Assembly (NCBI GenBank): GCA_964016885.1
Contig: OZ024742.1
Location: 31,372,001 to 31,436,000, forward strand
Length of the DNA: 64,000 nt
From: Eledone cirrhosa
Taxonomy: Eukaryota
Direction: 5' to 3'
Below the pieces are notes generated by a model, which was not told where the DNA came from, ran no database searches, and saw nothing but the letters and a program-made list of their open reading frames with translations. A program made the translations under genes and the position numbers. Shown here piece after piece: positions 11,216 through 64,000 of this stretch. Positions within the stretch are counted from its first letter, which is position 1. Each line of letters begins with the position of its first letter.

Positions 11216-11887
11216 GTAAGTATTATACATTTCTACCAATCCAATAATGGGTTTTGATTTAGGCATAAGGCCAACAATATGGGGAAGGGGAAAGTCGATT
11301 AAATCGACCCCAGTGCATTACTAGTACTTTATTTTATCAATCCGCAAGGATGAAAGGCAAAGCTAACCTCAACAGGATTTGAATTCAGAACGAAAAGGGT
11401 AAATAATAATGGGTTCCGATTTAAGTACAAGGCCAACAATATTTCGGTGGGGATTGGACAATCCAATAATAAATCTTGTTTCATATGTAAGGTGGCAAAT
11501 TGGCAGTCATTAGAACGTCAGATAGAATACTTTGTGGTATTTGTTCTGGCTCTCTGCTTTCTGAGTTCAAATCCTGCTGAGATCAACGTTGTCTTTCATT
11601 CTTTTGAGGTCAATAAAAAAGTACCAGTCTAGTACTGGGGTCGATTCTTCCTCTATATCTCTTTCAATATCCTATATAATGTTATAAAGAGAAAAATGTA
11701 CATAGTTTTATATAGATAATAGTGTATACAGTATTATATAGACAGTAACCTATATAGTGTTATATAGACAAAAATATATATAGTATTATGTATAAAATAA
11801 CCTACCTTGTGTTATATAGATAATGATGTGAACCACATTTAATGTAATTCACCAAATTATAAATAATTTTTGTTCTTTTTCTTTCAG

Positions 11888-12376
11888 TTTGTAAAGCAAA
11901 ACGACCAGTAAATTTCTACCTGGGTGTTGAACAAAACAGCCTTGAAAGCTCAGAAATTGAAGGCATTTTAAGTCTTTACAAAGAAATGAATAAAGAACTG
12001 CAGCCTGTCAATGGTAACACTGTTCAATCAAAATATATCTTGAGTGAACCTTCAAACAAAACAGAAGACATTAGCAATAGTTATATCAATATTTTAAGAA
12101 AAACAATGGAAGCCACAAATCACAATTTGAACAAAGACGCACAAAATACCTTACTGTTATTTTTCAAATCTAGCACAAAAGTAACAAAAAGAATTCGACA
12201 CGAAGCTAGAATTTTGAGAAATCACAAAATTGAGGTTTACGCTGTTATCAAAGGCAAAAGTCCCAAAGACTTTTCACCAATTGTTAATAGACCAGCTGAA
12301 GATCATCTCTTTAATGTACCAAGTTTCACCAAGCTGAGTGGCTACAAAGATACAATATTGAAGATAGTTTGTCAAG
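11888..12376 (+). CDS. VWA gene exon: degenerate Cys-bracketed VWA domain (ICKAKRPVNFYLGV...EARILRNHKIEVYAV...EDHLFNVPSFTKL...ILKIVCQ)
   Basis: Acceptor ttctttttctttcag, donor gtcagt, 489 nt, phase 1-1. The C-terminal part resembles matrilin/collagen VI-type VWA ends (A..L+..GIEVFAV; P...H.F.V..F..L; terminal C). Confidence 0.85.
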
Positions 12377-14514
12377 GTCAGTATCTTTGTTCTTTTCCAA
12401 GAAATTAGAATCAGTTGTTTTATGTGTGATATTTTTCCTTTTTATCTTATTGTATTAGATGTAAGAGAAAAAGGTATTACTGAGTACATTTCTCTTCCTC
12501 CTCTTAATTCTTCTTTTTATTCTCCTTTTTCTTTTCTTTCTTCTCCTCCTCTCACTTATATAACCATCTTCAATTGTGACCAGTCAAGCTCATGGAAGTT
12601 ATCCAACTGTCTTGCTCAGGGTCTGCCTACCCCTTGGTCTCCTGCCAGTTGGCTTTGCCTGTTTTCAGCATAATCCAGTGTGTGTGCTTGACTAGGCTGA
12701 CCTTTTGAATTACAGGCACAGTGCATCTGACAAGCTTCTAAAATAATTTCCATCTACCCAATTTCCATTTCAAGGCATGGGTTGACCCAAAGTATGGTAA
12801 ATGACACATTCTACTGATGTCACACTCTGGGATGAAACCCAGGATCTAATGATTGCATAGTGAATGGTATAAACATTTGTCCATGCTGTACTTATGGTCG
12901 TGTTCACCCAGGGTGGGTTGAGCCAGCATCATCGAAGGAATTCATGGTGTAAGTTCATTTCAATTGAGTTTCTTGAGGCGATTGGTTTCACAAGCGGTGC
13001 CCGCAGGTATATGCACTTTAGGGCAGTGCAAATCAAGCATCGCATTGGTTATAGCACCAAGCTCTCGCTTTCAAACCCAACCCAATTTGGTAGAGCCAGT
13101 GCTGCTACGGGGACACATGGAAGGGAGTTTGGCTGGCAGAGGTGATAAACACGACCTGTTTGAGCCATGTTGTAGGTCAGGAACTCACCCCAATGCCCAG
13201 TCCAGGCATCCTGACCCTCGTCCATTTTATCTAAGATTTCTCTTTAAAAACATCCTTGTTTCTTTTTTGTTCTTATGTCTGAAGTTTTCCTTATATTTGT
13301 TCCAGGATGGTGAAATGGTAACACTTCAGATTAGAATGAGGAAAAAACTGCAGAAACACTTAACATTAGTGTGATTTCAATTGTTTCATTTATGAGGGAT
13401 ATTTGGAGATTTCAAAATTAAGTAAAAAGAATAAAAGAAAGAAAATATATGGTGAATTACCAACCAGCCAACCAGCCAGCCAGTTGGACAGACAGATGAA
13501 GAAAGAAATAGAAAATATTTGGACACAATCTGAGAAATTTGAAACAGAAACACCAAAGAAGTCTTGGTTAATAGGAAAATGATTTTATCTGTACATGACT
13601 GGCAAAATACTTTCTTTTTTCTTTTTATACAATGGCAAAATATTTTCTTTCTTTTTTTTTTTTTGAGAAATTCTTACCTATTTCCTTATATTAATAATAA
13701 TAACAATAATATTAATGATATTTACACGGTTCAAGCTGCTTCCATAAACAAATGGTTGAAAATATTTCACCAAAATGTCTATTGGTTTCCTAATGAAAAG
13801 GAAATATGACACTAACACACATACATATACACACGTTCATACACATATATACACACATAACACCCTCCCCCATCGCTACACACACACACACACACATGAA
13901 ACAAAATGACAAACCTCAAACTTCCAGAAAAAGCTGAAATATAATATTTCTGAATTTCTGAAACCAAATCAGGAAATGAAGCTTTAAAGAAGTTTAAAGA
14001 TGGTGCAATGTAAAGATGGACACACAGACAAATGATGAAATAATGAAGTTTGTTTGTAATTCGCCGTGAAACTGGAAGCAAACGTTATAATGTTATAATA
14101 AAACACAAAAAACAAATGCATCTGTGATATAGGTTCTTTTTCTTCTTCCCTTCTTATAAAACATTTTAACCGTTAACTTGAACATGCTTCAGACATGTGA
14201 GAGCCAAATTTGTTTGTCCAGCTACTTTATTACTAAGTGGAGATGACTCCTTCCCACTCCTCATTATTATTTGTCATTCACCATTCCTCTGTATAAACCA
14301 TAGGAGACGAACAAGACCCAATACTATCAAAGATGCAATTACCACTTCAACTCACATTTTGAGCAGATCTTTTTTTTTTATTTTCTCACCCCTAACTGAA
14401 GAATGCCAACCTAGTCACAACTACTTTACTATAAATTCTATTAGTGAATGGATTATATTAACTATTAACATCCTGTAGCACATGAAACCGCATTAGTGAA
14501 ACATTTTTGAAAAG

Positions 14515-20249: not shown

Positions 20250-22660
20250 AAAACAAAGACTGGTTTGATGAGAATGACCAGGAGGTCAAGGCTCTGCTAG
20301 ACAGAAAACAAAAGGCACTTGATGCAGTTCTTAAAGGTGGTAGCTCTGTTGGTGACAATAATGAGCATTACAGACAGGTAAAGAAGGAAGTGCAGGTGAA
20401 ACTCAGAGCTATGCAAAATACCTGGTGGAGCAACAAAGCAGATGAAGTTCAAGTGGCATCTGACGGCAACAATGTGAAACTGCCGCACTTTCTACTCACA
20501 GAGGTGTATGGCCCTTTCAGCTCTCCAGTGGCCCCTTTGAGATCGAAAGATGGCAAGCAATTACTGCGTGACCCAAAAGACACTCGACAGATAGAGAGAT
20601 CACTTTGATGAGCTCTTAAACCAGGTTGATGATGATTTCATTTGTTCCATTCCTATTGAACCAGTGAAGCATATGAGATGGCTAATGTATCTTCTCTTGC
20701 AGAGGGGACTTCTGTTGTGCATAAGCTGAACTGTGGTAAGTCTCCTGGTATGGATGGTCTGAGTGGAGCGGTTTTGAAGTGTGGTGGTGAAAACTTCACG
20801 CAGCGCCTGACTGACCTCATGAAAATGGTGTGGGAAGATGAGAATGTCCCACAAGAAGGATGCGCTCATGGTGATTCTCCATAAAGGAAAGGACGGCAAG
20901 GACAAATGTGGCAATTATCATGTCATATCCCTTCTTTCAGTAGTTGGTAAAGTCGTGTCGAATATTGATGGATAGATTGATCCCAAGAGTTGCTCTGAAT
21001 GTGTTGCATGAGTCGCGGTGTGGGTTCAGAAACGAAAGAGGAACAGTGGATATGATCGTTTCTGCTCGGCAGCTGCAAGAAAAGTGTATCGAACAATGTA
21101 TGGACCTTTACCAGGTCTTTGTTGACTTGACAAAGGCCTTTGACACTGTCAATCGAACTGCGTTGTGGGAAAAAAATCCAAGGTAGGGTAGAAGATTCTG
21201 CATCTTTTCCATGATGACATGAAGGCTTTGGTCAGTATTGGTGGTAGCATCTCTGAACCAATATCAGTTGAAAATGGAGTGAAGCAGGGGGACATTCCGG
21301 CTCCAACTCTGTTTTCCTTATATTTTACGATAGTGTTTCTCATGGCATTCAAATATTGTTCTCATGGGGTTTACATCAGGTATCGCACTTCAGGAAGGTT
21401 GTTCAACACCAGGCGCTTTGGTACAAGCACAAAGGTATTAACATCTATAATCCGAGAGTTTTTGTATGCAGACGACTGCGATCTTTTTGCACACTCACAA
21501 AGTGACATGCAGCATATTATGAACTTTTTTTATGCAGCTTGCAGCACTTTGGGCATCACAATAAGCTTGGAAAAGACTGTTGTGATGTATCAGCCAGCAC
21601 CTGGAAACGAGTACACTGCACCAAGTGTGTACGTGTACGGAAAGAGGCTAAAAGTTGCCGACAAGTTTGTTTACCTTGGTAGTACGTTGAACACTTCATG
21701 CACACATGATAATGAAATATTTTTAAGAATCAAGAAAGCCAGTGATGCTTTTGGACGGCTGCATCAACGTTTATGGTCCAGACGAGGTATCACTATCGAA
21801 ACCAAGGTGAAAGTGTATCTGACTTGTGTCATCTCCTCTTTACTTTATGTTTGTGAAACGTGGGTCACATACAGAAAGCAGCTCAAGGATCTGGAGAGAT
21901 TTCACCAACAATCTCTTCATAAGTTACTTGGGGTGTGGTGGAAAATGTTCGCAGTGATTTTGAAGTTCTAGAACGGAGCAGGTGCTTGACGAAAGAGAGC
22001 ATAATCTTTCGGTATCGGTTGAGGTGGTGCAGTCACGTGGTCCGGATGTCTGATGATCGTATTCCAAAGCAACTTCTCTATGGAGAACTGTGTGAAGGAA
22101 GGCGACCACCACATAAACTAAAAAGGCGGTACCGGGACTGTATCAGGGGAACCTTGGCTTGTGCTAGAATTTCATCTGACGAATGGGAGAAAATGGCTGA
22201 CGAGCGTGTGAAGTGGAGACGTTTGATCAAGCCAGGTGGTGAACACTTTGAAACTTGTCGGAGAGAACACCTAACACTGAAAAGGAAGGTGAGGATTTAG
22301 ACTGTTCTGAACTGCCTGCTGTTGAACATCATCTGGTTTGCCAACACTGTGGTCGAGTCAGCCTGAGCAAAGCTGGTTTGATTAGACATGAACAAAGTCA
22401 TATCAGTAGACCTCATGTAGATTATCATCTGAAAAGGTGTAAGAAATGTACAAGCATGGGAGGTCTTAAAAGATACATGTGAACATACAGCCAGAACAAA
22501 GCAATGGAAGGTTTCGGAGGAGCCTAAAGTTGCCATGTGTGTGCCAGAGGATGCAAGTATTTGGCTGGTTTAAAGAGTCACATTTGTGCTTCACATTTTT
22601 GAACATTTTATCGGGCGATGGCAATACTTGAACACGAGTTTGCAGCCATCATGTAGTATG
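20250..22660 (+). mobile_element. 5'-truncated, frameshifted RTE (BovB-like) LINE
   Basis: KDWFDEND, KSPGMDG, FVDLTKAFDTV, GVKQG, LYADD, F.YLGS, C-terminal CxxC..H...H finger; (TATG)n tail. Confidence 0.92.
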
Positions 22661-40539: not shown

Positions 40540-43500
40540 TGTCTTTTTCGGACCCCGCTGAGGCAATTTCATATCATCTGCCTCTGTTAAAGCTGGGCAT
40601 GAAAATCGGATTACCTTCCAAACACGCCCAGGCCTACCACCTGATGTACGTGCTGCAGCTTCTTTGAATCGGAACTCAGCACAACATGAAAGTTTTAGTC
40701 TGCGTGATGATGGGCAGATCTGGAGGTTTGTTAAGGCTGGTGAAACGTGGTAGAGAGATACCAGCTGGTCTGAGTGCGCTCTACCCACAATACCTGGCAA
40801 TGAAAAAACCGCAACAACTCTGGGAAACTAAACCAGAACAACCTGCCATCCTCTACACACCATCATAATCTGTAAACAGGGTACAAATTGTTATCCTTAA
40901 ATGCTCGCAGTTTATGCAACAAGATACATCTGTTTAACTCCTACGTCAAAAGCATCGACTCTGACTTCATCACAGTCACGGAAACATGGGCACATTCCTT
41001 ACTCCGTGATGGAGTTTTCAGCATTACTGGGTACAACCTGTTCTGCAAGCACCACATTAATCGCTGTGGTGGTGGTGTGATGGTCTACGTTTGTTCAAAC
41101 TTTTCAGTAATTCCTTGCATTGATTTGAACGAATCACAAGAAGTTTTTTTCTGTGACATACGTATGACCATGTCAACACTTCTGCTTGGTTTTGTTTATC
41201 ACCCCCCCCCCCCCCCCAAAAAAAAAACTACCATCAGGACACACAGCTTTGTGATATCCTCAGAGCTGCTGCCAGGAAAACAGTGTTTATTGCAGGTGAC
41301 TTCAATCATCCTGAGATCGATTGGGAAATCTTTCGTTGGCCACAAAAAGTGCAAATGATTTCCTTGAGCTGGACTCAAACTGGTCACAACTAGTCACCTC
41401 TCCAACAAGAGGTGACAACACTTTGGACCTGCTCTTCACCACTACTCCTGAAGTGGTTATCAGTTGTACTACTAAGGAACCTCTAGGTGACTCTGATCAT
41501 GCTATGATCATTGCCAATCTGGCTCTTGCAGGCAGCAACAAAAACCAGAACCATCTCCAATCTGCTTGCTTTGATTGGAACTTGTACTGCACCAAAACAG
41601 GCATGAGTTCTATAACTCTGGAGATGTGAACACTATACTCCAGAGCATCCTGGGCTCAATATGGATAGCGTGTGCAGCATCAGTGCCACGTAAGCAGAAA
41701 AAAAAACCACCCCAAAAGTGCAATTTGGGAAACTTCAACGGTCCGACTTGCCAGGAAAGAACGTCGGAACGCTGAACAGGAATATAAACTGCATAAATCA
41801 GATGCCAACAGAAGAAAGCGTAATAAATCTTCCAACCATCTCAAGCAAGTGACAAAAAAGGCAGTGCTTGAATTTGAACAGTGCATAGCAACCAATCCTG
41901 ACAGTAAGGTGTTCTGGAAATATGTACATTCAAAACAGAGACCTCACTCTCCAGTTGGTCCTCTTCGCAATCCCCACACAAGCCAGATCACTGACGATCC
42001 CAAAGAATGCGCAGAACTCATTGCTGAATGCTATGCAAGCATTTTTACTGTTGAAAACCAGAATGTACCATCTCCACCATCAAATTCCATAACAACTATG
42101 GAATTTACAACTGCAATGCTGCGACGTCACCTTAAGAATAAGCGCAACTATACCTCCCCTGGTCTTGGTGGTGTTACATACCTGCTTCTTAAACGTGGCG
42201 GGTACTTCCTTTTGCACCAGCTTTCTTTCTTCTTTCAATACTGACTCAATGGTGCTACTCCGGAGCAGTGGAAAACTGCCAGTGTCATTCCCCTGTTCAA
42301 AAAGGGCGATCGCACGTCACCTGTCAACTATCGTCCAGTCAGTCTTACTAGCTGTATTGCCAAACTGATAGGATCCTGTGTCAGAGAAACACTTTGGAAC
42401 TTCTGGAGCTCTCACAACCTCATCCGGCCCTCGCATTTTGGATTTATCCCTAACTCCAGCTGCTGTAATCAGCTTATCGAGTTCCTTGAAGACATTAACC
42501 GGATCACTGACAGCGGCTCATGGGTGGATGTTGTCTACCTTGACTTCGTTAAGGCTTTTAATTCTGTGCCACACAAAAGACTTATGGTGAAACTCTCTGC
42601 AATGGGTGTGTCTTCACCATATGAGATGTCATCTGGTGTATCACAGGGATCTGTTCTTGGTCCCCTTTTGTTTGTTGCATATATTAATGACATAGATGCC
42701 AACTTAAAGAATGCCACAGTACTGAAATATGCAGATGACATCAAGCTGTACCTTGAAGTCAAGAGGACAGATCCTGAAATCTATAACTCTTTCCTACAAT
42801 CAGACCTGGACACAATGCAGCAATGGACCACAGACTGGCAACTGAAGCTGGCTGTGGACAAGTGTATCACCATTCATTTTGGGAGGAAAAATCCCGCGTC
42901 CACATACTCCCTCCACAACACTGATATCAAGAAGTCCTCTTGTGAACGCGACCTGGGCATTACTGTCAGCAGCGATTTGCGTTGGACAAAGCACATCTCT
43001 AAAATTGTCAAGAAGGCCGAGGGTGTCTTGGCATCACTCAGCAAGGCCTTTGTTAGCCGCTCTCCAGCCACCTATTTAAAGCTGTATACAGCTATGGTAC
43101 GACCACACTTGGAATTCGCATCATCAGTCTGGACCCCTATCTTGCTCAGAACATTGACCTCCTAGAAACTGTTCAGAGACGTGCAACCAAGCGCATACCC
43201 TCCATCAGACACCTACCATACTCTGAACGCCTTGCTTCCCTGGGCATGGATTCATTGAAGCTCCGACGTCTGGCAATGGACTTGGTAAACACCCACAAAA
43301 TTATTAACCAACTCCCCAACAACAACCCTGAGCACCTTTTTGATCTCCATGTGTCTAACACACGTGGACATGCCTACAAAGTCAGAAAACAGCACAGCTC
43401 CCATGACTTTCGGAAACATTTTTTCACGCTTAGAGTTGCTGAAGCATGGAACAAACTGCCTGCGTTAGTTGTTAGCTGCCGAGACACTGCATCCTTTAAA

Positions 43501-45207: not shown

Positions 45208-45692
45208 CAGTGGTCACCAACCTTTCGGACCTCATGGACCACTGAATTCATAATCTTAAATCCCGCAGACTACTAATATGAATTTTTTTACAAAGACAAA
45301 TACATTCAAATTTTCTCGGTGACCACTGGTTGGTGACCACTGGTTGGTGACCACTGGTTGGTGACCACTGGTTAGTGACCACTGGTTGGTGACCACTGAT
45401 TGGTGACCACTGATTGGTGACCACTGGTTGGTGACCACTGGTTGGTGACCACTGATTGGTGACCACTGGTTAGTGACCACTGGTTGGTGACCACTGATTG
45501 GTGACCACTGATTGGTGACCACTGGTTGGTGACCACTGATTGGTGACCACTGGTTGGTGACCACTGGTTGGTGACAACTGGTTGGTGACCACTGATTGGT
45601 GACCACTGGTTGGTGACCACTGATTGGTGACCACTGGTTGGTGACCACTGGTTGGTGACCACTGATTGGTGACCACTGATTGGTAACCACTG
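45208..45692. mobile_element. hAT MITE whose right TIR is amplified into a 14-bp tandem array (45318-45692, about 27 units)
   Basis: Left TIR CAGTGGTCACCAACC; array unit GGTGACCACTG(G/A)TT; 8-bp TSD ATCTAACA at 45200-07 and 45693-700. Confidence 0.9.
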
Positions 45693-45932: not shown

Positions 45933-46082
45933 CTATGGACATTCTGGTGGAATTTGGTTCTTCTTCTCATGACAGTCACGAACAATACACTCAGCTATAG
46001 CAGACATGTCTTTGGGGTTTTTTGCTGATGTAAACAGCAAAGATCTGTCCATACGAGTCATTATAACAGCCATTTTGAAATC
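45933..46082 (-). CDS. ureG: UreG-like terminal exon 6 (DFKMAVIMTRMDRSLLFTSAKNPKDMSAIAECIVRDCHEKKNQIPPECP*)
   Basis: Acceptor ttattacatgtag, 150 nt, phase 0, TAG stop. R..RSLLFTSAK resembles UreG R..RPFVFTNLK. Six exons total 675 nt = 224 aa plus stop. Confidence 0.85.
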   Translation of the reverse strand, partial: DFKMAVIMTRMDRSLLFTSAKNPKDMSAIAECIVRDCHEKKNQIPPECP

Positions 46083-46296: not shown

Positions 46297-46400
46297 CTCC
46301 ATGTTAAATTCCAAAGCCTTTTCTAAATCTATTTTATTGACCACAAGTAATTCACAGTAATCATTACCAGCTATTCTTTTCTTGATAATGTTTTCACCAC
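46297..46400 (-). CDS. ureG: UreG-like exon 5 (GGENIIKKRIAGNDYCELLVVNKIDLEKALEFNME), NKxD motif
   Basis: Acceptor ctatttttgtag, donor gtaagt, 104 nt, phase 1 to 0. LLVVNKIDL corresponds to the UreG LLVINKTDL guanine-specificity motif. Confidence 0.93.
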
Positions 46401-47291: not shown

Positions 47292-47439
47292 CTGCGATAT
47301 CAATTATTAGAATGGTGTAATCAACCAAATCTCTGTTAAAATGGGCGGCATGACAATCTCCAGCAGATTCTAACAGAATTATTTCAGGTTGGAATTCTTC
47401 CGTCAATTCTTTGATTGCTTTCAGGTTTCCATCAATATT
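47292..47439 (-). CDS. ureG: UreG-like exon 4 (NIDGNLKAIKELTEEFQPEIILLESAGDCHAAHFNRDLVDYTILIIDIA)
   Basis: Acceptor ctatttttag, donor gtttga, 148 nt, phase 0 to 1. Aligns to UreG ...NL.A.EEL...D..L.ESGGDNLAA.FS.EL.DY.IY.IDV.GG. Confidence 0.93.
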
Positions 47440-47699
47440 CTAAAAATAGAGAAATAGAGAGAAATATACAGAAAGAGATAGAGAGAAATATATATAGAGG
47501 GAGATAGAGAAATATATATAGAGAGAAATATATAGAGGGAGATAGAGAAATATATATATAGAGAGAGATAGAGAGAAATATATATAGAGGGAGATAGAGA
47601 AATATATATAGAGAGAGATAGAGAAATATATAGAGGGAGATAGAGAAATATATATATAGAGAGAGATAGAGAGAAATATATATAGAAAAAGCCTTATAG

Positions 47700-48342
47700 T
47701 TGCAGTACAAGATTAAGCTCTTTCTACCAATTTGGTAAAATATAACATCTACAAAACTTCTGACACCCAGAAATGCAGACTCTCTGGAAAGAATGTGGAA
47801 AATGTGGCCAACTTAGTAAGTATGTGCAAGAGCATTACACAAAAAGAATACAAGTGCCACCATGATAAAGTCTGTCTACACCTGTGTTGGAAATACCAAT
47901 ATGGAGTCATAGAGAATTGGTATGAGCATATGCCTTGTAAAGTAATGCAGGAGGAGGAAAAAGGAATGATATTCTGGGATTAAGATTTTCAAACTGATAG
48001 AGTAATCGAGCACCACTGACCAGATATTGTCGTATTGAACAAGAAAGACAAATGCTGTCAGAGCCTAGATGTAGCCATACCAAATGACACGAATATTGCG
48101 AGTAAAGAGGTTGAAAAAGTCACCAAGAACTTCGGAATGAAAGTGGAGCTGACAAGACTGTTTGGAATGTAAGAGAGTAATGTGGAAGTGATACCAGTTG
48201 TGATTATGGGGGCATTAGGGTCAATCCCATTGAAATTTCAAGATTCTTAAAGTGACTGGGAATACCATAGAGGTTGGGTGTCATACAAAAGGTGGCTTTG
48301 TTAGGTACTGCAGATATTTTGAGGAAAGTATTATTTGTCTGA
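47700..48342 (+). mobile_element. R4/Dong-like (RLE-type) LINE 3' fragment
   Basis: Decayed CCHC knuckle (CRL.GKNVENVANLVSMC), HDKV, WYEH.P, IFWD, PDIVV, DVAIP, K..EK and GALG, with stops. Confidence 0.8.
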
Positions 48343-48404
48343 GGTCCTTATTGTGACTTGATAGATGACTAAATACCCTGGGACAATAATGGTTTCTGTT
48401 TAAT

Positions 48405-49789
48405 GACCAGCTGCCCATGAGAACTCCTATATGCAGATGATCTAACTCTCATAGCTGAATCTATGCCTGAACTAGAGAAGAAATTCCAAACATGGAAGCA
48501 TGGCCTAGAATCAAAAGACCTTAAAGTTAAGTTGTCTAAGACTAAAGTTCTAGTTTGTAGAAAGGAAAATAGGGCTCAGGTGCCCTCAGGGAAATGGCCA
48601 TGCTCAGTGTGTAGGAAAGGAGTAGGAAGAAATTCTATTTTATGTCCCAAATGCAAACTATGGGTACATAAAAGATGTAGTGGGATCACAGGTAAACTAT
48701 CTAAGAACGTAGATTTTATATGTGGCCGATGCTCAGGTGCAATAAGTAGCAAGTGCCCACAGGATACTAGCTCCTTCTATTGCCCAGATAGTTCTATAGA
48801 AATAGTGGACACTTTCCGTTACCTGGGTGATAAAATCAGCAGTGGTGGAGGGTGTACTTCTGAAAGTACAGTAGCCAGAGTCAGAATGGGATGGAAAAAG
48901 TTCAGAGAGCTTATACCGCTGTTGGCCACAAAAGGTTTCTCTCTAAAAATGAAAGGCAGATTGTATGATGCTTGTATACGAACAGCAATGCTACATGGCA
49001 GTGAGACATGGGCATTGTGTGCAGAGGATCTGCGCAGACTGGAAAGGAACGAAGCATGCATGCTCCGTTGGATGTGTAATAGTAATATACGTGAACGGCA
49101 AAGCATAAATGAACTAAGTGAGAAATTAAGAATAAGAGGGATCAGATGCTGTTTACTTGAGAGAAAATTACGTTGGTATGATCACGTGATGCGCATGAAA
49201 GACCGTATAAAAAAGTGCAGGGTGATCAAAATTGATGGAAGTTACGGAGTAGACCCAGAAAAACCTGGGACGATTTAATAAATTCCAACCTCACACACTT
49301 GCACCTCTCTAAGACAATGTCACTGGACCAAGATCTTTGGCGCTATGCAGTAATACAAAAGACCCGCCTTGCCTATGTATAAAGTGAAACCTACAGTCAG
49401 TAGGCACCTCTTAACCAAATATACACCCCAATCCACTACCCCTACCCTATCCTCCCACTCCCACCAACACCACCCTCTCTCTGTAAAGTTGGTACCACAA
49501 CATCCAGTCCAAATAAATGAGATAATGAGATCGAGATCGTGTAGGTGTCATGACAAAAAAAAACACACAGTCCACGCTGTAATGTGGCCGTGTAGGTAAC
49601 ACGATAAAAACCTCCCAGTCCACACTGTAAACGTGGTTGGTGTTAGGAAGGGCATCCAACCGTAGAAAACATGCCAGATAGTCCTATATGAGCAAGACAC
49701 GGTCACCCGACCAACCTTTCCTCAAGTGGGACAACTCCCGTCTAACCCATGCTAGCATGGAAGATGGACGTTAAACGATGATGATGATG
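48405..49789 (+). mobile_element. 5'-truncated RTE-X-like LINE
   Basis: ELLYADDL, Cys/His insert WPCSVC..C..C..WVH..C, FRYLG, LHGSETW; 3' UTR ending in (GAT)n. Confidence 0.9.
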
Positions 49790-49992
49790 CACAAGACCAA
49801 CAATTTGTTTAAGGCACAAGGCCAACCCCAGTGCATTACTGGTACTTTATTTTATCGCCCCCGAAGGATGAAAGGCAAAGCTAACCTCGGTGGGATTTGA
49901 ACTCAGACCATAAAGGGCTATAACTCTATGCTGCAAAGCATGTTGTTTGATGCTCTACAGACACTGCCAATCCAATAAAAACACAACATTAC

Positions 49993-50089
49993 TTTGTTCA
50001 TAGAATCCAGTGGACATCCCTCTGTTATGACAGATCGAATCTTCTCTTTTGGTATGGCACCTGATTCAACCAATTTGTCGGCATCAACA
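49993..50089 (-). CDS. ureG: UreG-like exon 3 (VDADKLVESGAIPKEKIRSVITEGCPLDSMNK)
   Basis: Acceptor tatatttcag, donor gtaatg, 97 nt, phase 2 to 0. Aligns to UreG EDAEFL...GALP.ERI..VETGGCPH, but reads CPL. Confidence 0.92.
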
Positions 50090-50107
50090 CTGAAATATAA
50101 ATATATA

Positions 50108-50605
50108 TTAAAAATTAGAATTGGAGCTCTGAAATAGCAATATATATATGGATGTATATATAATGTATTTTGCAATACACTTTATGCTTAATTAACAGCA
50201 TTTTGAAGACCGTAAGCTATTGTTTTAAAGTAGTGACAAATTCACTCACTTTGATCTCAGCAAACAGGGGAGATAAGCCGACAAGACTTGTTTCGCTTTG
50301 GTTTCAGAGCTCCAATTCTAATTTTTAATTTCTGCCTGACCAACAACCGCTCTGAATAATCAGCTCCTGATTATTTACTAGATTTCTATAAGAATATAAC
50401 ATCAATGATCTCAGCAAACAGGTGGGGTAGTTGGCCTTGATAAGCTTCAACCAAAGCGAAACAAGTCTTGTCGGCTTATCTCCCCTGTTTGCTGAGATCA
50501 AAGTGAGTGAATTTGTCACTACTTTAAAACAATAGCTTACGGTCTTCAAAATGCTGTTAATTAAGCATAAAGTGTATTGCAAAATACATTATATATACAT
50601 CCATA
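50108..50605. mobile_element. Nested-palindrome Penelope-like element with a hammerhead variant
   Basis: Arms at 50147-50303 and 50449-50605; second inverted repeat at 50108-50134 / 50302-50328; core TTGATAA-gctt..aagc-GAAA-caa-GTC at 50437-50467. Confidence 0.7.
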
Positions 50606-50654
50606 AATATATATATTTATTTATGTTAGTTTACCTCTACATGAAGCCACAAAC

Positions 50655-51378
50655 AGCCTATGTGGTCAACAGTCAGCCTACATGTTGTCAACAGACATTC
50701 TACATGTGGTCAAGAGACTGTCTACACGTGGTCAACAGACAGCCTACATGTGGTCAACAGACTGTCTACATGTGGTCAACAGACTGTCTACATGTGGTCA
50801 ACAGACTGTCTACATGTGGTCAACAGACTGTCTACATGTAGTCAACAGACAGCCTGCATGTAGTCAACAGACAGCCTGCATATGGTAAACAGACAGCCTA
50901 CATGTGGTCAACATACACTCCTACATGTGGTCAACAGAGCCTACATGTGGTCAACTGTCAGCCTACATGTAGTCAACAGACAGCCTGCATATGGTAAACA
51001 GACAGCCTACATGTGGTCAACTGTCAGCCTACATGTGGTCAACAGAGCCTACATGTGGTCAACTGTCAGCCTACATGTAGTCAACAGACAGCCTACATGT
51101 GGTCAACAGACAGCCTACATGTGGTCAACAGACATTCTACATGTGGTCAACAGACGTTCTACATGTGATCAACAGACTGTCTAGATGTGGTCAACAGACA
51201 TTCTACATGTGGTCAACAGACATTCTACATGTGGTCAACAGACAGCCTACATGTAATCAACAGACTGTCTAGATGTGGTCAACAGACAGCCTACATGTGA
51301 TCAACAGACTGTCTAGATGTGGTCAACAGACAGCCTACATGTGGTCAACAGACATTCTACATGTGGTCAACAGACATT
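50655..51378. repeat. 22-bp minisatellite (CTACATGTGGTCAACAGACAGC variants)
   Basis: About 33 tandem units. Confidence 0.95.
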
Positions 51379-51684: not shown

Positions 51685-51806
51685 GTGGTGTAGAAATCAT
51701 TTGTTACTACACAGATATTATGATCTTTCAGAACAGAACACACGGCAAGGATAATGGTGGTTTTCCCTGAACCAATTGGACCATGAATGCCAACTGTAAA
51801 AGCTCG
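51685..51806 (-). CDS. ureG: UreG-like exon 2 (RAFTVGIHGPIGSGKTTIILAVCSVLKDHNICVVTNDFYT), P-loop
   Basis: Acceptor tttcatttcag, donor gtgagt, 122 nt, phase 0 to 2. Matches UreG RAFTVGIGGPVGSGKT and VVTNDIFT. Confidence 0.93.
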
Positions 51807-52109: not shown

Positions 52110-54615
52110 ATGGTTGCTATGGTTCCAGTGTGGTAGTGGGAAGGACTGACTTGTGGTTGCTATGGTTTCAGTAAGGTAGTGGGAAGGACTGACTTGTGGT
52201 TACTATGGTTTCAGTGTGGTAGTGGAAAGGACTGACTTGTGGTTATTATGGTTTCAGTGTGGTAGTGGGAAGGACTGACTTGTGGTTACTATGGTTTCAG
52301 TGTGGTAGTGGGAAGGACTGACTTGTGGTTACTATGGTTTCAGTGTGGTAGTGGGAAGGACTGACTTGTGGTTACTATGGTTTCAGTGTGGTAGTGGGAA
52401 GGACTGACTTGTGGTTACTATGGTTTCAGTGTGGTAGTGGGAAGGACTGACTTGTGGTTGCTATGGTTTCAGTGTGGTAGTGGGAAGGACTGACTTGTGG
52501 TTACTATGGTTTCAGTGTGGTAGTGGGAAGGACTGACTTGTGGTTACTATGGTTTCAGTAAGGTAGTGGGAAGGACTGACTTGTGGTTACTATGGTTTCA
52601 GTGTGGTAGTGGGAAGGACTGACTTGTGGTTGCTATGGTTTCAGTGTGGTAGTGGGAAGGACTGACTTGTGGTTACTATGGTTTCAGTAAGGTAGTGGAA
52701 AGGACTGACTTGTGGTTACTATGGTTTCAGTGTGGTAGTGGGAAGGACTGACTTGTGGTTGCTATGGTTTCAGTATGGTAGTGGGAAGGACTGACTTGTG
52801 GTTGCTATGGTTTCAGTGTGGTATTGGGAAGGACTGACTTGTGGTTGCTATGGTTTCAGTATGGTAGTGGGAAGGACTGACTTGTGGTTGCTATGGTTTC
52901 AGTGTGGTAGTGGGAAGGACTGACTTGTGGTTGCTATGGTTTCATTATGGTAGTGGGAAGGACTGACTTGTGGTTGCTATGGTTTCATTATGGTAGTGGG
53001 AAGGACTGACTTGTGGTTGCTATGGTTTCAGTAAGGTAGTGGGAAGGACTGACTTGTGGTTACTATGGTTTCAGTGTGGTAGTGGGAAGGACTGACTTGT
53101 GGTTGCTATGGTTTCATTATGGTAGTGGGAAGGACTGACTTGTGGTTACTATGGTTTCAGTGTGGTAGTGGGAAGGAGTGACTTGTGGTTACTATGGTTT
53201 CAGTATGGTAGTGGGAAGGACTGACTTGTGGTTACTATGGTTTCATTATGGTAGTGGGAAGGACTGACTTGTGGTTGCTATGGTTTCAGCATGGTAGTGG
53301 GAAGGACTGACTTGTGGTTACTATGGTTTCATTATGGTAGTGGGAAGGACTGACTTGTGGTTACTATGGTTTCAGTGTGGTAGTGGGAAGGACTGACTTG
53401 TGGTTGCTATGGTTTCAGTGTGGTAGTGGAAAGGACTGACTTGTGGTTACTATGGTTTCAGTGTGGTAGTGGAAAGGACTGACTTGTGGTTACTATGGTT
53501 TCAGTGTGGTAGTGGGAAGGACTGACTTGTGGTTGCTATGGTTTCAGTGTGGTAGTGGGAAGGACTGACTTGTGGTTGCTATGGTTTCAGTGTGGTAGTG
53601 GGAAGGACTGACTTGTGGTTACTATGGTTCCAGTGTGGTAGTGGGAAGGACTGACTTGTGGTTACTATGGTTTCAGTAAGGTAGTGGAAAGGACTGACTT
53701 GTGGTTACTATGGTTTCAGTGTGGTAGTGGAAAGGACTTGTGGTTGCTATGGTTTCAGTGTGGTAGTGGGAAGGACTGACTTGTGGTTACTATGGTTTCA
53801 GTGTGGTAGTGGAAAGGACTGACTTGTGGTTGCTATGGTTTCAGTGTGGTAGTGGGAAAGACTGACTTGTGGTTACTATGGTTTCAGTATGGTAGTGGGA
53901 AGGACTGACTTGTGGTTACTATGGTTTCAGTGTGGTAGTGGAAAGGACTGACTTGTGGTTGCTATGGTTTCATTATGGTAGTGGGAAGGACTGACTTGTG
54001 GTTGCTATGGTTTCAGTATGGTAGTGGGAAAGACTGACTTGTGGTTGCTATGGTTTCAGTGTGGTAGTGGGAAGGACTGACTTGTGGTTGCTATGGTTTC
54101 AGTGTGGTAGTGGGAAGGACTGACTTGTGGTTGCTATGGTTTCATTATGGTAGTGGAAAGGACTGACTTGTGGTTGCTATGGTTTCAGTATGGTAGTGGG
54201 AAGGACTTGTGGTTGCTATGGTTTCAGTGTGGTAGTGGGAAAGACTGACTTGTGGTTGCTATGGTTTCAGTATGGTAGTGGGAAGGACTGACTTGTGGTT
54301 GATATGGTTTCAGTGTGGTAGTGGGAAGGACTGACTTGTGGTTGCTATGGTTTCAGTGTGGTAGTGGGAAGGACTGACTTGTGGTTGCTATGGTTTCAGT
54401 GTGGTAGTGGGAAGGACTGACTTGTGGTTGCTATGGTTTCAGTGTGGTAGTGGGAAGGACTGACTTGTGGTTGCTATGGTTTCAGTGTGGTAGTGGGAAG
54501 GACTGACTTGTGGTTGCTATGGTTTCATTATGGTAGTGGAAAGGACTGACTTGTGGTTGCTATGGTTTCAGTATGGTAGTGGGAAGGACTTGTGGTTGCT
54601 ATGGTTTCATTATGG
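52110..54615. repeat. 43-bp minisatellite, about 58 copies, in UreG-like intron 1
   Basis: Unit TGGTT(A/G)CTATGGTTTCAGTGTGGTAGTGGGAAGGACTGACTTG with no unique spacers. Confidence 0.97.
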
Positions 54616-54823: not shown

Positions 54824-54877
54824 TTTATTCCAGTCGGTTCGGTAGAAATTCTGACCGGGAATTCTTCTACAAGTCAT
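54824..54877 (-). CDS. ureG: UreG-like GTPase, coding exon 1 (MTCRRIPGQNFYRTDWNK)
   Basis: ATG at 54877, donor AAA|gtaagt at 54823, phase 0. The RTDWNK|RAFTVG junction resembles eukaryotic UreG R(D/N)(W/F)NERAFTVG. Upstream acceptor ttaattacag at 54937; the frame is also open upstream of the ATG, so the start is not certain. Confidence 0.75.
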
Positions 54878-58712: not shown

Positions 58713-61700
58713 TTCTATTTATTTGCCATGAGGGCACAAAAGAAGGGGACATTTACACAGTGGGGGAGTTTACATAAATCGAGTAAAGAAAAAAGGAATA
58801 ACAATAATAATATAACAATAAAAAGTCCTCAAAAGGGAGGGGGCGTGTTGGGGATTGCACATACCCCCGAAAAGTGTGCAACTCTTTTCGCGGGGGAAGC
58901 CCAGAGAGGAGGCGCTCCCCCTTTCCTCTTCACTTCTTCACCTACAGAACAATGTAGAGAGAAGGCCCATTTACACGGGCCATTCTCGCTTCTTTCACCC
59001 ACCTTTCATAAAACTGTCTGGGGCCAAGCACTTCTCTCTCCATCCTGATCCTTCTTCCGAAGTGGTATCGGAAGAAGTAAACCAGGTGATGGCCGGAGAG
59101 AAAGTCACCCGACCTCAGACCTTTCAGGCGCGTCCACCACACAACCTCTTTCATCATGGCTATTACGCACAGAAAGACCGCCTCTGCTTCACTTCTGAAG
59201 GGAGGAGGCGGCTTGATGTTCACCACAGACTCGGCGGTTAATCGAATCGGCGCCACACGCGACAGCAGTCGTTCGACGTAGCCCCACAGATCGGCAACGC
59301 CCGGGCAGTGTACCAGTGCATGCGCAACGGTTTCCTCGTCGCGCACGCATCTGGGACAGATCTTTTTCGCGGGATCCCTGCCCGGGCGCCCGTGTCTGTA
59401 GAGCTTTTCTCAAACGGGCAGAGCCCCCCGGTAACACTGCCAGGCTAGGGACCTCTGGAAGTTGTCCATGGGTCCCGGGCCGAAAGTTCTACCGAACAGG
59501 CTGGCCAGTTCGTCCTCCTCCATGCCTAGCGACTCTCCAAGGGTGTCGTCGCCCTTGCTAGCCACCAACCCTCTATAGGATGTCGAGGTGGATTCTCCAC
59601 TGATAGTCGGGTCCGCTTGCCAGATAGCCGTGAGCGCCTGGGCACACTCGGTGTGCCAGTTGCCCAGTTTTCTCGGTCTTTGCTTCACCCAGGATTGCAG
59701 TTCGGTGAGCGAGACGAGCTGTGGGAAGGCTCGCCTCACAAACGGGGCCCACACCGGCTGACCGTTGAGGAATACCTGTAGATGCCGTAGCCTCAATGCG
59801 TGCCTACGCATCAACAGCCACGGCATACCCAGCCCTCCTTTCGAAGGGTGCTGGCAGCAGATGGATCTCCTCACCATGGGAGGCCGCTTCTTCCAGAGGA
59901 ACTGGAAGAGCATGCGTTCCATGATGGTGAACTTTTCCTTGGGGCAAGGCACAACGGTCAGGCGGTAGTAGATGACGGACGCTATGTAAGCGTTCGTCAC
60001 CTCCACCCGACCTTTCAGTGATAGTTTGCACTTGGCCCACTTCTGGGTCAGCGCAAACACCCTGCTCGTAACCTTGTCCCAATTCTTCTCCACCTGGAGG
60101 TCCGGTCCGAACCAGACCCCGAGCAGCTTCACCGGGCCCTCCGTCCACCGCCCGACGACACCGTCTAACGGCATCGGTTTGCCCTCCGCGTTCCGAGTTG
60201 CAAACCGACTCACTTGTCCTGGTTCAGCCTAGCCCCCGTCAGCCTTTCGTATTCCTCCAGTAGGGTGGCGATCGCCCCGATTTCCGAGGCGTCCGCCACC
60301 ATTACTGTTACGTCGTCGGCATAGGCCGAGACCGCTTTGTGCAATCCCGGTTCCAGGGGTATGCCCCGCAGCAACTCCAACTTCCGCAGCAGTGGCTCGA
60401 GAGTCAATACGTACAGAAGGGAGGAGAGGGGGCACCCCTGTCTGATGGACCAGGTGATTTGAAACGGCTCCGAGAGGTAGCCGTTTACTTTAATCCTAGA
60501 GTAGATGTTGCCACTGTGCATGGCAGAAATCCAGCCCCTGAAAACGGGTCCGAAGCCCGCCGCCGTTAGCACCGCATCCAGGTAACCATGGTCGACTCTA
60601 TCGAACGCCTTAGATTGATCCAAGTTGATCAGGGTCCCACCAAAGCCGGGTTTGTTGCCAACCCTCTCTACGATGTATCGCATGAGGTGGAGGTTGTCGT
60701 GAATGGACCTGAACGGGATAGCGCATGTCTGCGCACCTCCCACCAAACCACCCACCACAAGCGCCAACCTCTTCGCCAACACCTTGGCCAAAATCTGTAA
60801 CTCTGCATTTAGCAGAGTTATGGGCCTAAAGTTACTTAAGTCGTCCCCTTTGCTCTCGTCCTTCCTCACTAGCGTGACCACGCCCTTGGTCACAGAACAG
60901 GGAATTCTCCCGTTCTGTTGCCAGTTGCAATAGACAGCCTCGAGGAGTTCGGAGAACAAGACCGGCATAGCTAAATAAAGTTCGTATGGTAGACCATCGA
61001 GACCCGGAGATTTGCGTCTGCTGCATTGGCTGAGCGCTTCACCGATTTCAGTGGCTGTGATTGGCCTTTCGCAGCACTCCGCTTCGCCTCTCGAAAGACG
61101 CGGTAGACCGTCGAGGTATGGACCGAAGTCCACATCCCCGTCCGGCCCCCCGCCCCCTCCGAACAGTCGAACAAAGTGCCTTTGAAAGGCCTCGCACATC
61201 CGCTCAGGTTCAAGGATCACCCGTCCATCCTGGTCTCGCAAAGACCGAATGGTGGATTTAATCCCACTCTTGGCTTCTGTCACGCGGGCCCAGCTAACAG
61301 CTTTGGTCCCCTCGTTTCCTAAAGCACGTATTTTACTTCGGACAACGCAGCCTTCGTGCTTGGCGTCAAAGAACTGGCTCAATGCCGTTCTCGACGCTAA
61401 CACTCTGGCCACGTCTCCGCTCCTAATCGCCTCTTCTAGTTTATCTGTTAACTCCCTTTCCTTCCTATTTCTATTTGCCGCTAGTTCCTTACTGTAACCT
61501 ATCGAACTTACTCTAATCTCTCTCTTTAGAGATACCCACCACCTGCTGTTGACGATCGTTCCCGTCAACCGCATCTTAACTAAGCTACTAATCCGGTTCC
61601 TGTAATCTTTCTTTGCCGGCAAGGACAAGTTCATCTTCCAGTAACCGGGACCCTGTCTATGCGTTCTATCAAGGTTGACCACGCAGGTCACTAATTTGTG

Positions 61701-64000
61701 ATCTGAATAGCCAACCATGATCAGTTCTGGACAACTAAATACGTCCCTATCCTTACTCCTAACCAAAAACCTATCTAGGTACGATCTAGATTGTCCACTG
61801 CGGTTTGCCCAGGTCCAGGTTGGCTCAGTTGGACAATCTAGTCGAAATCTATCGACCAGGTCGAATCGATCGAGTAACCCCTTGAGGCTGCTACACCCCC
61901 CTCTATCGGGACATGCCCCTGCATAGTCCCAACGCGCATCTAGGATTCCATTCCAGTCCCCCACTAAAAGCAGGGAACGCGACGTTCCTAGAAAAGTCTC
62001 CAGACGCTGGAAGAAGTCGGCTCTTTCCGCCCCGAAGGGGGCATAAAGACCGACCAGTCTGAAAGCCCCGCCTTCACCGCCTCCGACGTCCAGCACCAGT
62101 AATCGACCCCCCGGGTCCGAGTGAACAATCTGTACGTCGAGAGCCAGACGTTTATCCAGCAGTACGGCAACCCCCCCCCCCCCCCGCCTCCGGGTTGACA
62201 GAGAGATGCGTGCATCTCAAAGTCATCGAAGGCGGGCGCCAGCTGTCTCACGCTGCTGATCCGACTCTCGCAAACAACCATCACATCTATACTTTGTGAC
62301 CTGAGGTCACTTAGAAGCTTTGCTTGCTTCCAAGCTGAGCCCAGGCCACGCGCGTTCAAACAGCCAACTCTCAATTGATCTATTTTGGTGTTGAAAGTGA
62401 AGAAAGAAAAGCACCTACCTCTCCGGGTTGTGTAATTTCCATGGCATCAGGTGTGTTGGGTGGAGGGATGTTTTGTGGTGGTGTGGGGGTACACGTGTGT
62501 GGTGGGGTTGGGGTATTTGGAGTTGTGTCAGGGAGAGGGGCGGTTATGGGGAAATCTTTCAAGAGGACGCGATTTAACGGTTTTAAACAGGGGGGGGGCT
62601 CACGTCCTGTCTAAATTGTTCTTTTAAGGAACGATAAAGGTCCAGAGGGACCTTTATCATTTTTAAATGGGTGAAGTTCTCTGTTGAGATAAAGTTTGGC
62701 CCTTCGGTCTGCACCATAGGGTTATTGTTTATTAATTTAACCAGTTTTTTGTTTTCTTTATTTATATATGTGTATTGCAACGTCTTTTTTTGTGATGCTG
62801 TCAATGTTTCGGAGAGGGGAGGCGCAGATTTATTTTTGTTTGTTGAGGCTGAGGTGTTTTTGATTGGAGTTGGTGTTTGTGTGTGGGTTATTTGTGGTGT
62901 GCTGGGTGTGTGTTTTCTTTTTTTTCTTTTAACTTGTCTGAAGGCTTCGCCTCCTTCTTCTTCAGAAGTTGGGGGAAACTCTTCAGCGCTAGGTGGGAGG
63001 GACGTGTTGTGTGGTTGTTTTTTTTTTGCGGGAGGGGTAAATTTGTTACTGTTTTTTTAATTATTTGTTTGGAATGGGTTTTGTGGTGGTGGTGGTGGTG
63101 GTAATGTTTGTCGTGCTTGTGGTTGGTGATGGTGGTGGTGATGTTTGTGTTGTGGTGGTGATTTTTGTGTCGTGCTTGTGTTTGGTGCTGGTGGTGGTGA
63201 TGTTTGTGTTGTGTTTGTGGTTGGTGGTGTCTGTATTTTGTTTGCTGTGTGTGGTATTAGTGTATTTTTGGAGGTGGGTGGTGTTGGTGTACTGTTTGTG
63301 GTGGGTGTGGGCAATAGTCCTTTTTGGGGGATACGTTTCGGGCAGTTAGCCTTAACGTGTCCCCTTTCCGTGCATAAATAGCATGCTGGTCTTCTCCCCT
63401 CTACAATTATATCTATTGGGGTGAGGTCATCCAGCCAGATGTGATCCGGGATTTGTGCTATTCTTTCGGGCCTCATTTGGACTAGTATGTCGAGGCCCAT
63501 TCCCAGGAACGCATCTCCAGTTGCCTTCCCCATTGACAGCATTGTGTCTTCGCCCATGTCTATGAAGCCAGCAATAGACCACCAGAAGTCCATTGTGGGC
63601 AGCATTGTTTTTACTTTTACTCTCTGTGTTCTTCTACCCATGTAGGAGGGATAGAAGCTGTATGTTGTCAATGAGAGTGGGCTTAGGGAAAGCTTCTGTG
63701 CCGTTTCCTTGTCTTTTGTTAAGACCGAAATGCTGCCATAGAGTCGGTCCTTTCGTATGAAGAGAATATTCTTCATATAGTCTTTTAGGACCAACTCTAT
63801 ATCCATTTGGCTGGGCTGTGCTGGCTTTCTTGTTTGGTTCAATATAGTTCTGAAGAGAACTGTGCTCTCTGTTCTCGCTTTCTTGAATTCTGGGGGGGGG
63901 GGGGGAGTTAATGGAAAACATTCCGTTCTCCCCCAAGACTATTTGTTTTTTCGCTTCGGCCAGTTTTTCTCTGGCGGCAGTTAAGTCAATTGGTGTATAT
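58670..64000 (-). mobile_element. Near full-length Tx1/L1-clade LINE (ORF1 about 62380-63900, ORF2 58942-62374), disrupted
   Basis: ORF1 knuckle CYLCTERGHVKANC. ORF2 has APE (CLNARGL, GDWN, YLDRFL, SDH), RT (KSPGLDGL, DQSKAFD, RQGCPLS, YADD) and a C-terminal CCHC. ORF2 is broken near 62170, 60210 and 59410. Confidence 0.95.

Follow-up and report, generated by a model that had tools for sequence, protein, structure and literature searches.

A UreG-derived gene of coleoid cephalopods, probably repurposed as a metallochaperone with a predicted four-cysteine metal site

The window analysed, a stretch of 64,000 nucleotides from Eledone cirrhosa (contig OZ024742.1, positions 31,372,001 to 31,436,000), carries a UreG-like gene whose product is, on balance, probably a G3E metallochaperone that was orphaned and repurposed and for which a Cys4 site is predicted. 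It is likely that the repurposing as a GTP-dependent metal chaperone took place in the ancestor of the coleoid cephalopods. According to the dimer model and the alignments, one metal ion is predicted to be held between two subunits by four cysteines, instead of the two cysteines and two histidines of UreG.

The gene lies on the minus strand (54877-45933) and comprises six GT-AG exons, the spliced ORF of which encodes 224 amino acids with zero internal stops and carries all motifs in one reading frame. Its features are as follows.

54824..54877, minus strand: exon 1, residues 1-18, with the ATG start and a GT donor; without histidine-rich tail, one cysteine (Cys3); aligns with the N-termini of the Argonauta and Sepia orthologues
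51685..51806, minus strand: exon 2, P-loop G1 GSGKT (51773-51759) and G2/switch I TND (51704-51696); TIGR00101 E 1.3e-7
49993..50089, minus strand: exon 3, Asp61 (H. pylori Asp43) and TEGCPL (50025-50008), with Cys84-Pro85 kept, His replaced by Leu86 and Gly by Glu82; TIGR00101 E 0.12
50014..50016, minus strand: Cys84 codon, ligand retained from the former CPH motif; the Sepia equivalent Cys83 contacts Cys83' and Cys119' in the dimer model
47292..47439, minus strand: exon 4, G3/switch II ESAGDCH (47370-47350), ExxG kept, Cys120 for an invariant Asn (H. pylori Asn103), His121 species-specific; TIGR00101 E 5.8e-9, alignment to 4HI0 and 5XKT
47353..47355, minus strand: Cys120 codon, new switch-II cysteine, coleoid-wide; the Sepia equivalent Cys119 contacts Cys119' and Cys83' in the dimer model
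46297..46400, minus strand: exon 5, remodelled PRKGGPG loop reading KKRIAG (46383-46366), Lys148 (H. pylori Lys131) kept, G4 NKID (46338-46327); from splice model and orthologue alignment
45933..46082, minus strand: exon 6, coleoid-specific segment around G5, C-terminal tail with conserved Cys223, stop codon; from splice model and orthologue alignment

Exons 2, 3, and 4, each scanned singly, match TIGR00101 in profile order, and the gene is therefore not a product of chance. Exons 5 and 6 give no family match alone, yet their identity to the Argonauta protein reaches 65% and 63%. Exon 4 aligns with residues 77-123 of H. pylori UreG, setting Cys120 on Asn103. The introns hold LINE fragments and tandem arrays. 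Most of what a sequence-only reading had described at this locus is borne out by the spliced ORF, namely a UreG derivative with intact GTPase motifs (GSGKT, TND, and NKID), with ESAGDCH in exon 4 in place of ESGGDNL and with CPL in place of CPH. The coordinates given there for TEGCPL, 50008-50016, fit CPL alone. The CPL codons are TGT CCA CTG, of which CTG is two positions away from CAT or CAC; as had been stated, this is neither a single-base error nor an A-to-I target, since editing cannot create the A that a histidine codon needs. Nor are the CPL and Cys120 changes assembly errors, because the orthologues share both. The absence of a histidine-rich N-terminus was likewise read correctly: there is zero histidine among the 18 amino acids of exon 1 and one ahead of the P-loop, compared with 5-15 in 32 of the 40 UreGs from named animals. 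The KKRIAG loop is present where RKGGPG was expected, but its first lysine, at the equivalent of Arg130 (position 147), is seen only in Eledone, with arginine in Argonauta and in cluster P0125 and arginine or histidine in the Sepia cluster; the fixed loop changes are Pro to Ile, Gly to Arg, and Gly to Ile.

The gene is the sole ureG-like locus found in the Eledone genome (3.0 Gb, 1796 contigs). A canonical ureG paralogue was not found there, the exon 4 search matching itself alone, and the two matches among four candidates of the TIGR00101 profile search are exons 2 and 4 of the same gene.

Orthologues were recovered by an exhaustive search with exon 4, in which one of 123 matches was close, P0001, the Argonauta hians protein GAB1606155.1 (70% identity). 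Used as query, P0001 led to two more clusters, P0124 and P0125. The former has seven members, including Sepia pharaonis CAE1298776.1, annotated as "ureG", and P0245 and P0246 are among the Sepia-cluster and related records; P0125 would be decapodiform, as its identity of about 80% to Sepia suggests. A profile of the coleoid sequences gave zero further derived forms among the best 120 of 992 matches, and an Octopus or Nautilus orthologue was not found among the 120 matches listed from 559 and from 992. In its name, the Argonauta record bears a gene number taken here for that of an Octopus RefSeq locus, and presumably Octopus has an orthologue as well. A word-index search with exon 4 alone gave nothing among 12 candidates, but the same search also missed P0001 and is thus insensitive, while the ESM Atlas returned ordinary UreG clusters only. 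Logan contigs of 1.0-1.7 kb, which would represent spliced transcripts in relatives, carry an uninterrupted ORF (23 contigs for P0125 and 29 for P0246). A search of sequencing runs listed no RNA holder, and the contigs from three runs compared with the locus, of at most one sample, are swamped by intronic repeats.

The orthologue alignment had been set beforehand as the refuting check, a kept CPH motif marking a private decaying copy; the CPH histidine proved to be missing from the orthologues too. In the four coleoid lineages, Cys-Pro is followed by Leu, Ala, Met, and Met, respectively (CPL, CPA, CPM, and CPM), and ESAGD is followed by Cys in all four. Both the CPH histidine and the switch-II asparagine are present in 225 of 225 non-coleoid UreGs, these being the full-length non-coleoid matches among those listed, which are the most similar to the coleoid proteins and include 40 from named animals. 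Among 383 proteins retrieved, CPH is found in 298 of the 307 with the motif and GDNL in 370 of 379; the nine exceptions in each case are coleoid records, all of which read GDCL. Judged by these alignments, loss of the CPH histidine and gain of Cys120 are coleoid-wide in the four lineages sampled. The motifs G1 (GxxGxGKT), G2 (TND), G3 (ExxG), and G4 (NKxD) are kept in all four sequences. At 65 core positions that are at least 98% invariant, 35 residues are kept in all four coleoids and 12 are lost in all four, six of the latter being fixed to one new residue (E82, A117, C120, I146, I150, and F177).

The four coleoid proteins form a clade (100/100), within which Eledone is sister to Argonauta (95/89), and this clade falls on the animal side as against fungi, oomycete, and bacteria (98/88) in a tree of 29 rows in which the coleoid branch is long and from which Arcobacter-type and other rows were left out. 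A horizontal origin from an Arcobacter-type UreG was considered and rejected; the join with three such rows in a quick tree was flagged as a meeting of long branches, and it is also countered by the animal-side position of the clade in the tree without those rows and by intron positions matching those of bivalves. Because of that meeting of long branches, the placement of the coleoid proteins rests partly on the introns. Intron positions common to the coleoid gene and bivalve UreG may be read from mis-spliced records: the sequence from Mercenaria leaves out precisely what corresponds to exons 2 and 3, that from Mya ends at intron 4, and in two records of the Sepia cluster the reading runs on into introns 1 and 4. 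From trees and intron positions together, the coleoid gene is descended from animal UreG. Depending on the set, the coleoid stem measures 3.0-4.2, while the end branches measure 0.14-0.44. Core identity is 44-48% between coleoid and mollusc UreG and 65-81% among coleoids, compared with 81-84% among other animals including the pair Aplysia-Pocillopora. The octopod-cuttlefish split lies more than 200 My back. At the level of sequence, these values indicate that the coleoid stem underwent change in a burst, after which the protein was conserved, though less tightly than canonical UreG. Coleoid conservation amounts to 41 of 65 at canonical-invariant sites versus 61 of 126 at the others, an excess that is not significant (Fisher p 0.066). 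Since coleoids diverge faster than the more deeply split canonical UreGs and the excess is not significant, constraint is relaxed.

The canonical client of UreG was sought in the Eledone genome by profile searches. Urease alpha (TIGR01792, PF00449) and urease beta gave 0 candidates, and urease gamma and UreF one candidate each with zero matches. Three weak UreD matches (E 0.013-0.095, with stops) were rejected after inspection of loci L004 and L005, the third, L006, overlapping L005; they lie inside a tandem repeat of a LINE-like 3' fragment. The check on urease proposed by the sequence-only reading thus ended without a find of urease, UreD, or UreF in this genome. Methylmalonyl-CoA mutase (TIGR00641), a conserved enzyme split by introns whose profile is about as large, served as positive control. 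It gave 11 matches, which lie at one locus, and because the control was recovered in 11 pieces, the urease blank is meaningful; the control matches the size of the urease profile, UreD and UreF are more divergent, and the absence of urease refers to one assembly. Uricase was likewise not found in the Eledone genome search. A description of cephalopod UreG or of urease loss was not found in the literature searched, in which subscription journals are thinly covered. One Octopus paper mentions urease in general terms only.

The site affected is well defined in H. pylori UreG, where Cys66 and His68 from both subunits bind one Ni; the substitutions C66A or H68A abolish the Ni/GTP dimer, and H68A also abolishes Ni binding, according to PMC3792862. 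In the legend to Fig S8 of the same work (Fong 2013), Asn103 is described as hydrogen-bonding the histidine of the metal motif, printed as "His66"; therefore, the joint changes in coleoids affect a pair of residues that adjoin each other at the metal site. GTP-induced salt bridges across the subunits connect Asp37, Glu42, and Asp43 to Arg130 and Lys131, as stated in a preprint (bioRxiv 10.64898/2025.12.08.692910). All four coleoids retain the equivalents Asp55, Asp61, and Lys148, and three of the four no longer have Glu42. An AlphaFold2 model of the Sepia protein P0245 has the UreG fold (pLDDT 83, pTM 0.84), and Foldseek places it closest to 5XKT (E 9.9e-17) and 4HI0. Modelled as a dimer with GTP and Zn, the same protein scored 0.50 versus 0.00 for the best control, a result that, like complexes of UreG having been solved, may reflect memory of 5XKT and 4HI0 in the model; of 30 solved pairs, 21 attain the mark for this score (7 of 16 among animals), and of 23 single chains, 0. 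The runs agree in at least 75% of contacts, with pLDDT of at least 82. Residues 116-122 lie within the modelled interface, and the contacts Cys83-Cys83', Cys83-Cys119', and Cys119-Cys119' are among the best defined, Zn having been supplied as input. The modelling check proposed by the sequence-only reading, whether the cysteine of CPL and the Cys/His of DCH cluster in a dimer, gives contacts between the cysteines in the Sepia model, in which the position of His121 is occupied by the canonical leucine. For Eledone, the corresponding prediction is that the subunits, with GTP bound, pair head to head and bring Cys84, Cys84', Cys120, and Cys120' together on the two-fold axis.

In terms of known systems, UreG (TIGR00101; 4HI0 of H. 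pylori, 5XKT of K. pneumoniae; Aplysia and Mizuhopecten among molluscs) is the ancestor and the best match in sequence and fold. The coleoid protein keeps G1-G4, ExxG, Cys-Pro, and the Asp43/Lys131 pair, and its predicted dimer would use the same loops; it differs in lacking the CPH histidine, in the exchange of Asn103 for Cys, in the remodelled PRKGGPG loop, in the loss of the histidine-rich tail, and in residing, in Eledone, in a genome without detected urease, UreD, or UreF. Full TIGR00101 scores of three coleoid orthologues are 137.9, 152.3, and 152.4 bits (the Eledone protein was scanned exon by exon), versus a curated cut-off of 204.2 and scores of 261.6 for Aplysia and 264.9 for Mizuhopecten. 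As far as sequence can decide, the coleoid protein fails UreG membership on CPH, Asn103, curated score, and, in the Eledone genome, co-occurrence with urease.

The predicted layout of two bridging cysteines per subunit is that of HypB (TIGR00073; 4LPS, 2HF8), which is also a SIMIBI GTPase of the G3E type. The HypB dimer is bridged by one cysteine between G2 and G3 and one in G3/switch II, hydrolysis being coupled to release, as outlined in PMC11672702; the four cysteines form a Cys4 site that binds Ni, according to PMC7055735. The coleoid proteins score 46.4-58.5 bits against the HypB cut-off of 121.2, have Cys-Pro rather than Cys-His at the first site, and bear the switch-II cysteine earlier in the loop. 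By these sequence measures, the resemblance is convergent and the coleoid protein is not descended from HypB. Animals are not known to have a NiFe-hydrogenase. CooC-1, the Ni-insertion ATPase of CO dehydrogenase, is a P-loop NTPase of the MinD type. Its interface Cys4 metal site resembles the one predicted for the coleoid protein; it differs in its adjacent Cys112/Cys114 and its deviant Walker A, and it is absent from nine PDB sequence matches of the coleoid protein. It binds one Zn or Ni through four cysteines across the dimer interface, as given in PMC6006190. ZNG1 is a eukaryotic G3E GTPase delivering Zn to its client METAP1, as described in PMC11672702. ZNG1/COG0523 (CBWD) shares Pfam PF02492 with the coleoid protein; both its CxCC motif and its C-terminal domain are absent from the latter. 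The Eledone genome contains a separate ZNG1-like gene with the motif NGCLCC at C13; as that gene has its CxCC motif, the idea that the UreG-like gene stands in for a missing ZNG1 was dismissed.

In the mechanism envisaged, GTP binding would close the dimer, aided by the cross-subunit pair Asp43-Lys131, which is kept, while Glu42 is lost in three of four lineages. The S4 site would then take up the metal, and hydrolysis would move switch II, now bearing a ligand as in HypB, with release of the metal. A new client would dock on the remodelled face, which would be formed by the fixed residues E82, A117, I146, R149, and I150 and the segment 177-201. As a matter of judgement only, Zn(II) is the foremost candidate for the metal, at slightly below an even chance; Cu(I) is considerably less probable, Ni(II) a little less probable again, and Fe-S improbable. 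Urease is the only eukaryotic Ni enzyme listed in a review (PMC7435645), and because urease was not found, Zn or Cu(I) are held likelier than Ni; by analogy with HypB and CooC, which bind Ni through Cys4, the predicted site would not exclude Ni. A more far-reaching version, which is put forward tentatively, is that coleoids lost urease and co-opted the nickel chaperone, with a HypB-like Cys4 site, for delivery of zinc or copper to a cephalopod-specific client or, alternatively, for an undiscovered animal nickel enzyme. Copper economy supporting haemocyanin and digestive-gland metal handling may be named as examples of clients.

The most serious rival, though an unlikely one, is a dimerising GTPase or scaffold without metal transfer, in which Cys120 would merely fill the space of the lost histidine or the four cysteines would constitute a redox or disulfide switch. 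Such a protein would agree with the joint loss of the histidine-rich tail and of the CPH histidine, the H. pylori H68A substitution being reported to abolish both Ni binding and Ni/GTP dimerisation; the change of Asn to Cys beside the lost histidine could be simple compensation, and the conserved terminal cysteines Cys3 and Cys223 could be sites of lipidation or redox chemistry. Against it, Cys84-Pro85 is kept in all four lineages while the neighbouring positions 86-90 vary freely, the residue fixed out of 19 possible replacements is the ligand that HypB uses in the same loop, and the dimer model clusters the four cysteines. A drifting relic under relaxed selection after urease loss, to which the rapid divergence, the 12 lost invariant residues, and a three-residue deletion after CP in the Argonauta orthologue would be congenial, is the least probable of all, given that the frames are open in all four lineages of octopods and cuttlefish, that all four agree at 102 of 191 core positions, with new residues fixed on the stem, and that transcript-like contigs exist in relatives.

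Two further proposals retain a metal site and are both quite improbable. One holds that urease is present and was missed, through an assembly gap or strong divergence, and is matured by the UreG-like protein via a HypB-like Cys4 nickel site. While a blank in one assembly does not prove absence and Cys4 can bind Ni in HypB and CooC, four urease profiles together with UreD and UreF remained blank where the mutase control gave 11 matches, the diverged ureG exons themselves were detected, the UreG scores are 138-152 bits in coleoids as against 262-265 in urease-type molluscs, and uricase, too, was not found. The other, marginally less probable still, is the view of the sequence-only reading that the metal site moved to a new Cys-His pair after switch II. 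His121 is real in the Eledone genome and adjoins Cys120 within the modelled interface, so it could serve as a species-specific extra ligand, and Cys-His is the motif of HypB. A ligand that defines function should be common to orthologues, but the position is leucine, the canonical residue, in nine of nine other coleoid records from three clusters, among them that of the sister taxon Argonauta, and 370 of 370 non-coleoid records read NL; His121 is private to the Eledone genome. What survives of the pair is Cys120 alone, replacing Asn103, and therefore the predicted Cys4 site, not a relocated Cys/His site, is indicated.

UreG is held to serve a single client, and its CPH motif is considered invariant. 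With its client apparently lost and the chaperone kept and rebuilt across octopods and cuttlefish, the coleoid gene would amount to a natural experiment in the change of metal and partner. Removal of the histidine and replacement of Asn103 by Cys would make a Cys4 site of the HypB type out of the Cys2His2 site of UreG, a conversion that a 25-kDa protein allows to be tested directly. Since the review lists urease as the only Ni enzyme of eukaryotes, either the metal would have changed or a new Ni client exists. A metal-dependent client in cephalopods is also suggested. If this holds true, a further eukaryotic G3E metallochaperone pathway would stand beside urease/UreG, METAP1/ZNG1, and MMUT/MMAA. 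The coleoid orthologues are labelled "uncharacterized" or "ureG" in the databases, and the latter annotation in cephalopod genomes would be misleading evidence for urease.

Among the matches listed, CPH-bearing canonical UreG is widespread among invertebrates, being found in molluscs, annelids, a brachiopod, chelicerates, tardigrades, echinoderms, amphioxus and a coral (P0254-P0343), and all 40 of the named animal records checked in this set carry the motif. The coleoid state is therefore exceptional. A further trait of the coleoid proteins is found at their termini, the coding segments of which are included in the following list.

Features of the window and the ZNG1-like gene of Eledone cirrhosa
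45936-45950 and 54869-54871, minus strand: Cys-bearing C-terminal and N-terminal coding segments of the UreG-derived gene (alignment of coleoid orthologues)
52111-54609: 43-bp tandem array, 58 copies with 94% matches, most of intron 1
50649-51376: 22-bp tandem array, 33 copies, intron 2
45318-45692: 14-bp tandem array, 3' of the stop codon
50107-50612: inverted repeats in intron 2, directly adjoining exon 3 (inverted-repeat search)
48421-49275, plus strand: LINE reverse-transcriptase (RT) fragment with embedded PHD-like finger, within intron 3 (domain scan)
21192-21968: RT fragment (domain scan)
42245-43162: RT fragment (domain scan)
60213-62216: RT fragment with endonuclease (domain scan)
11863-12405, plus strand: non-repetitive open stretch, 181 aa
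L011-L012, G000:C13:36,978,000-36,996,000, minus strand: ZNG1/CBWD-like gene elsewhere in the genome (exons with motifs)

According to the alignment, the coleoid orthologues have in common an N-terminal cysteine, which is Cys3 in the window protein and is represented by two cysteines in the others, as well as a C-terminal one at the last-but-one or last-but-two residue; at that terminal column, cysteine occurs in 0 of the 225 canonical UreG matches listed. The Cys-bearing termini are modelled with low confidence in the structure of an orthologue; possibly, these residues serve as extra ligands or lipidation sites.

The ureide pathway upstream of urease may also be reduced. A profile search of the whole genome yielded no uricase (TIGR03383) among six candidates and one exon-sized allantoicase match (L010:1459-1701, minus strand, near position 263,405,000 of contig C2; Pfam Allantoicase, E 1.4e-9), which is preceded by a short local duplication and is possibly a relic. 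Such a reduction would fit the loss of urease. The exons of the ZNG1/CBWD-like gene encode the motifs NGCLCC, ETTG and NKVD.

Intron 2 contains a 164-nt inverted repeat, whose arms at 50140-50303 and 50449-50612 are 99% complementary, as well as a shorter inverted repeat of 28 nt with perfectly complementary arms (50107-50134 and 50302-50329); the host being a cephalopod, the long dsRNA stem close to the exon could be a substrate for A-to-I editing. The 181-aa stretch, for which the domain scan gave a weak VWA-domain match under the cut-off (E 0.0044), is probably an exon of an adjacent gene.
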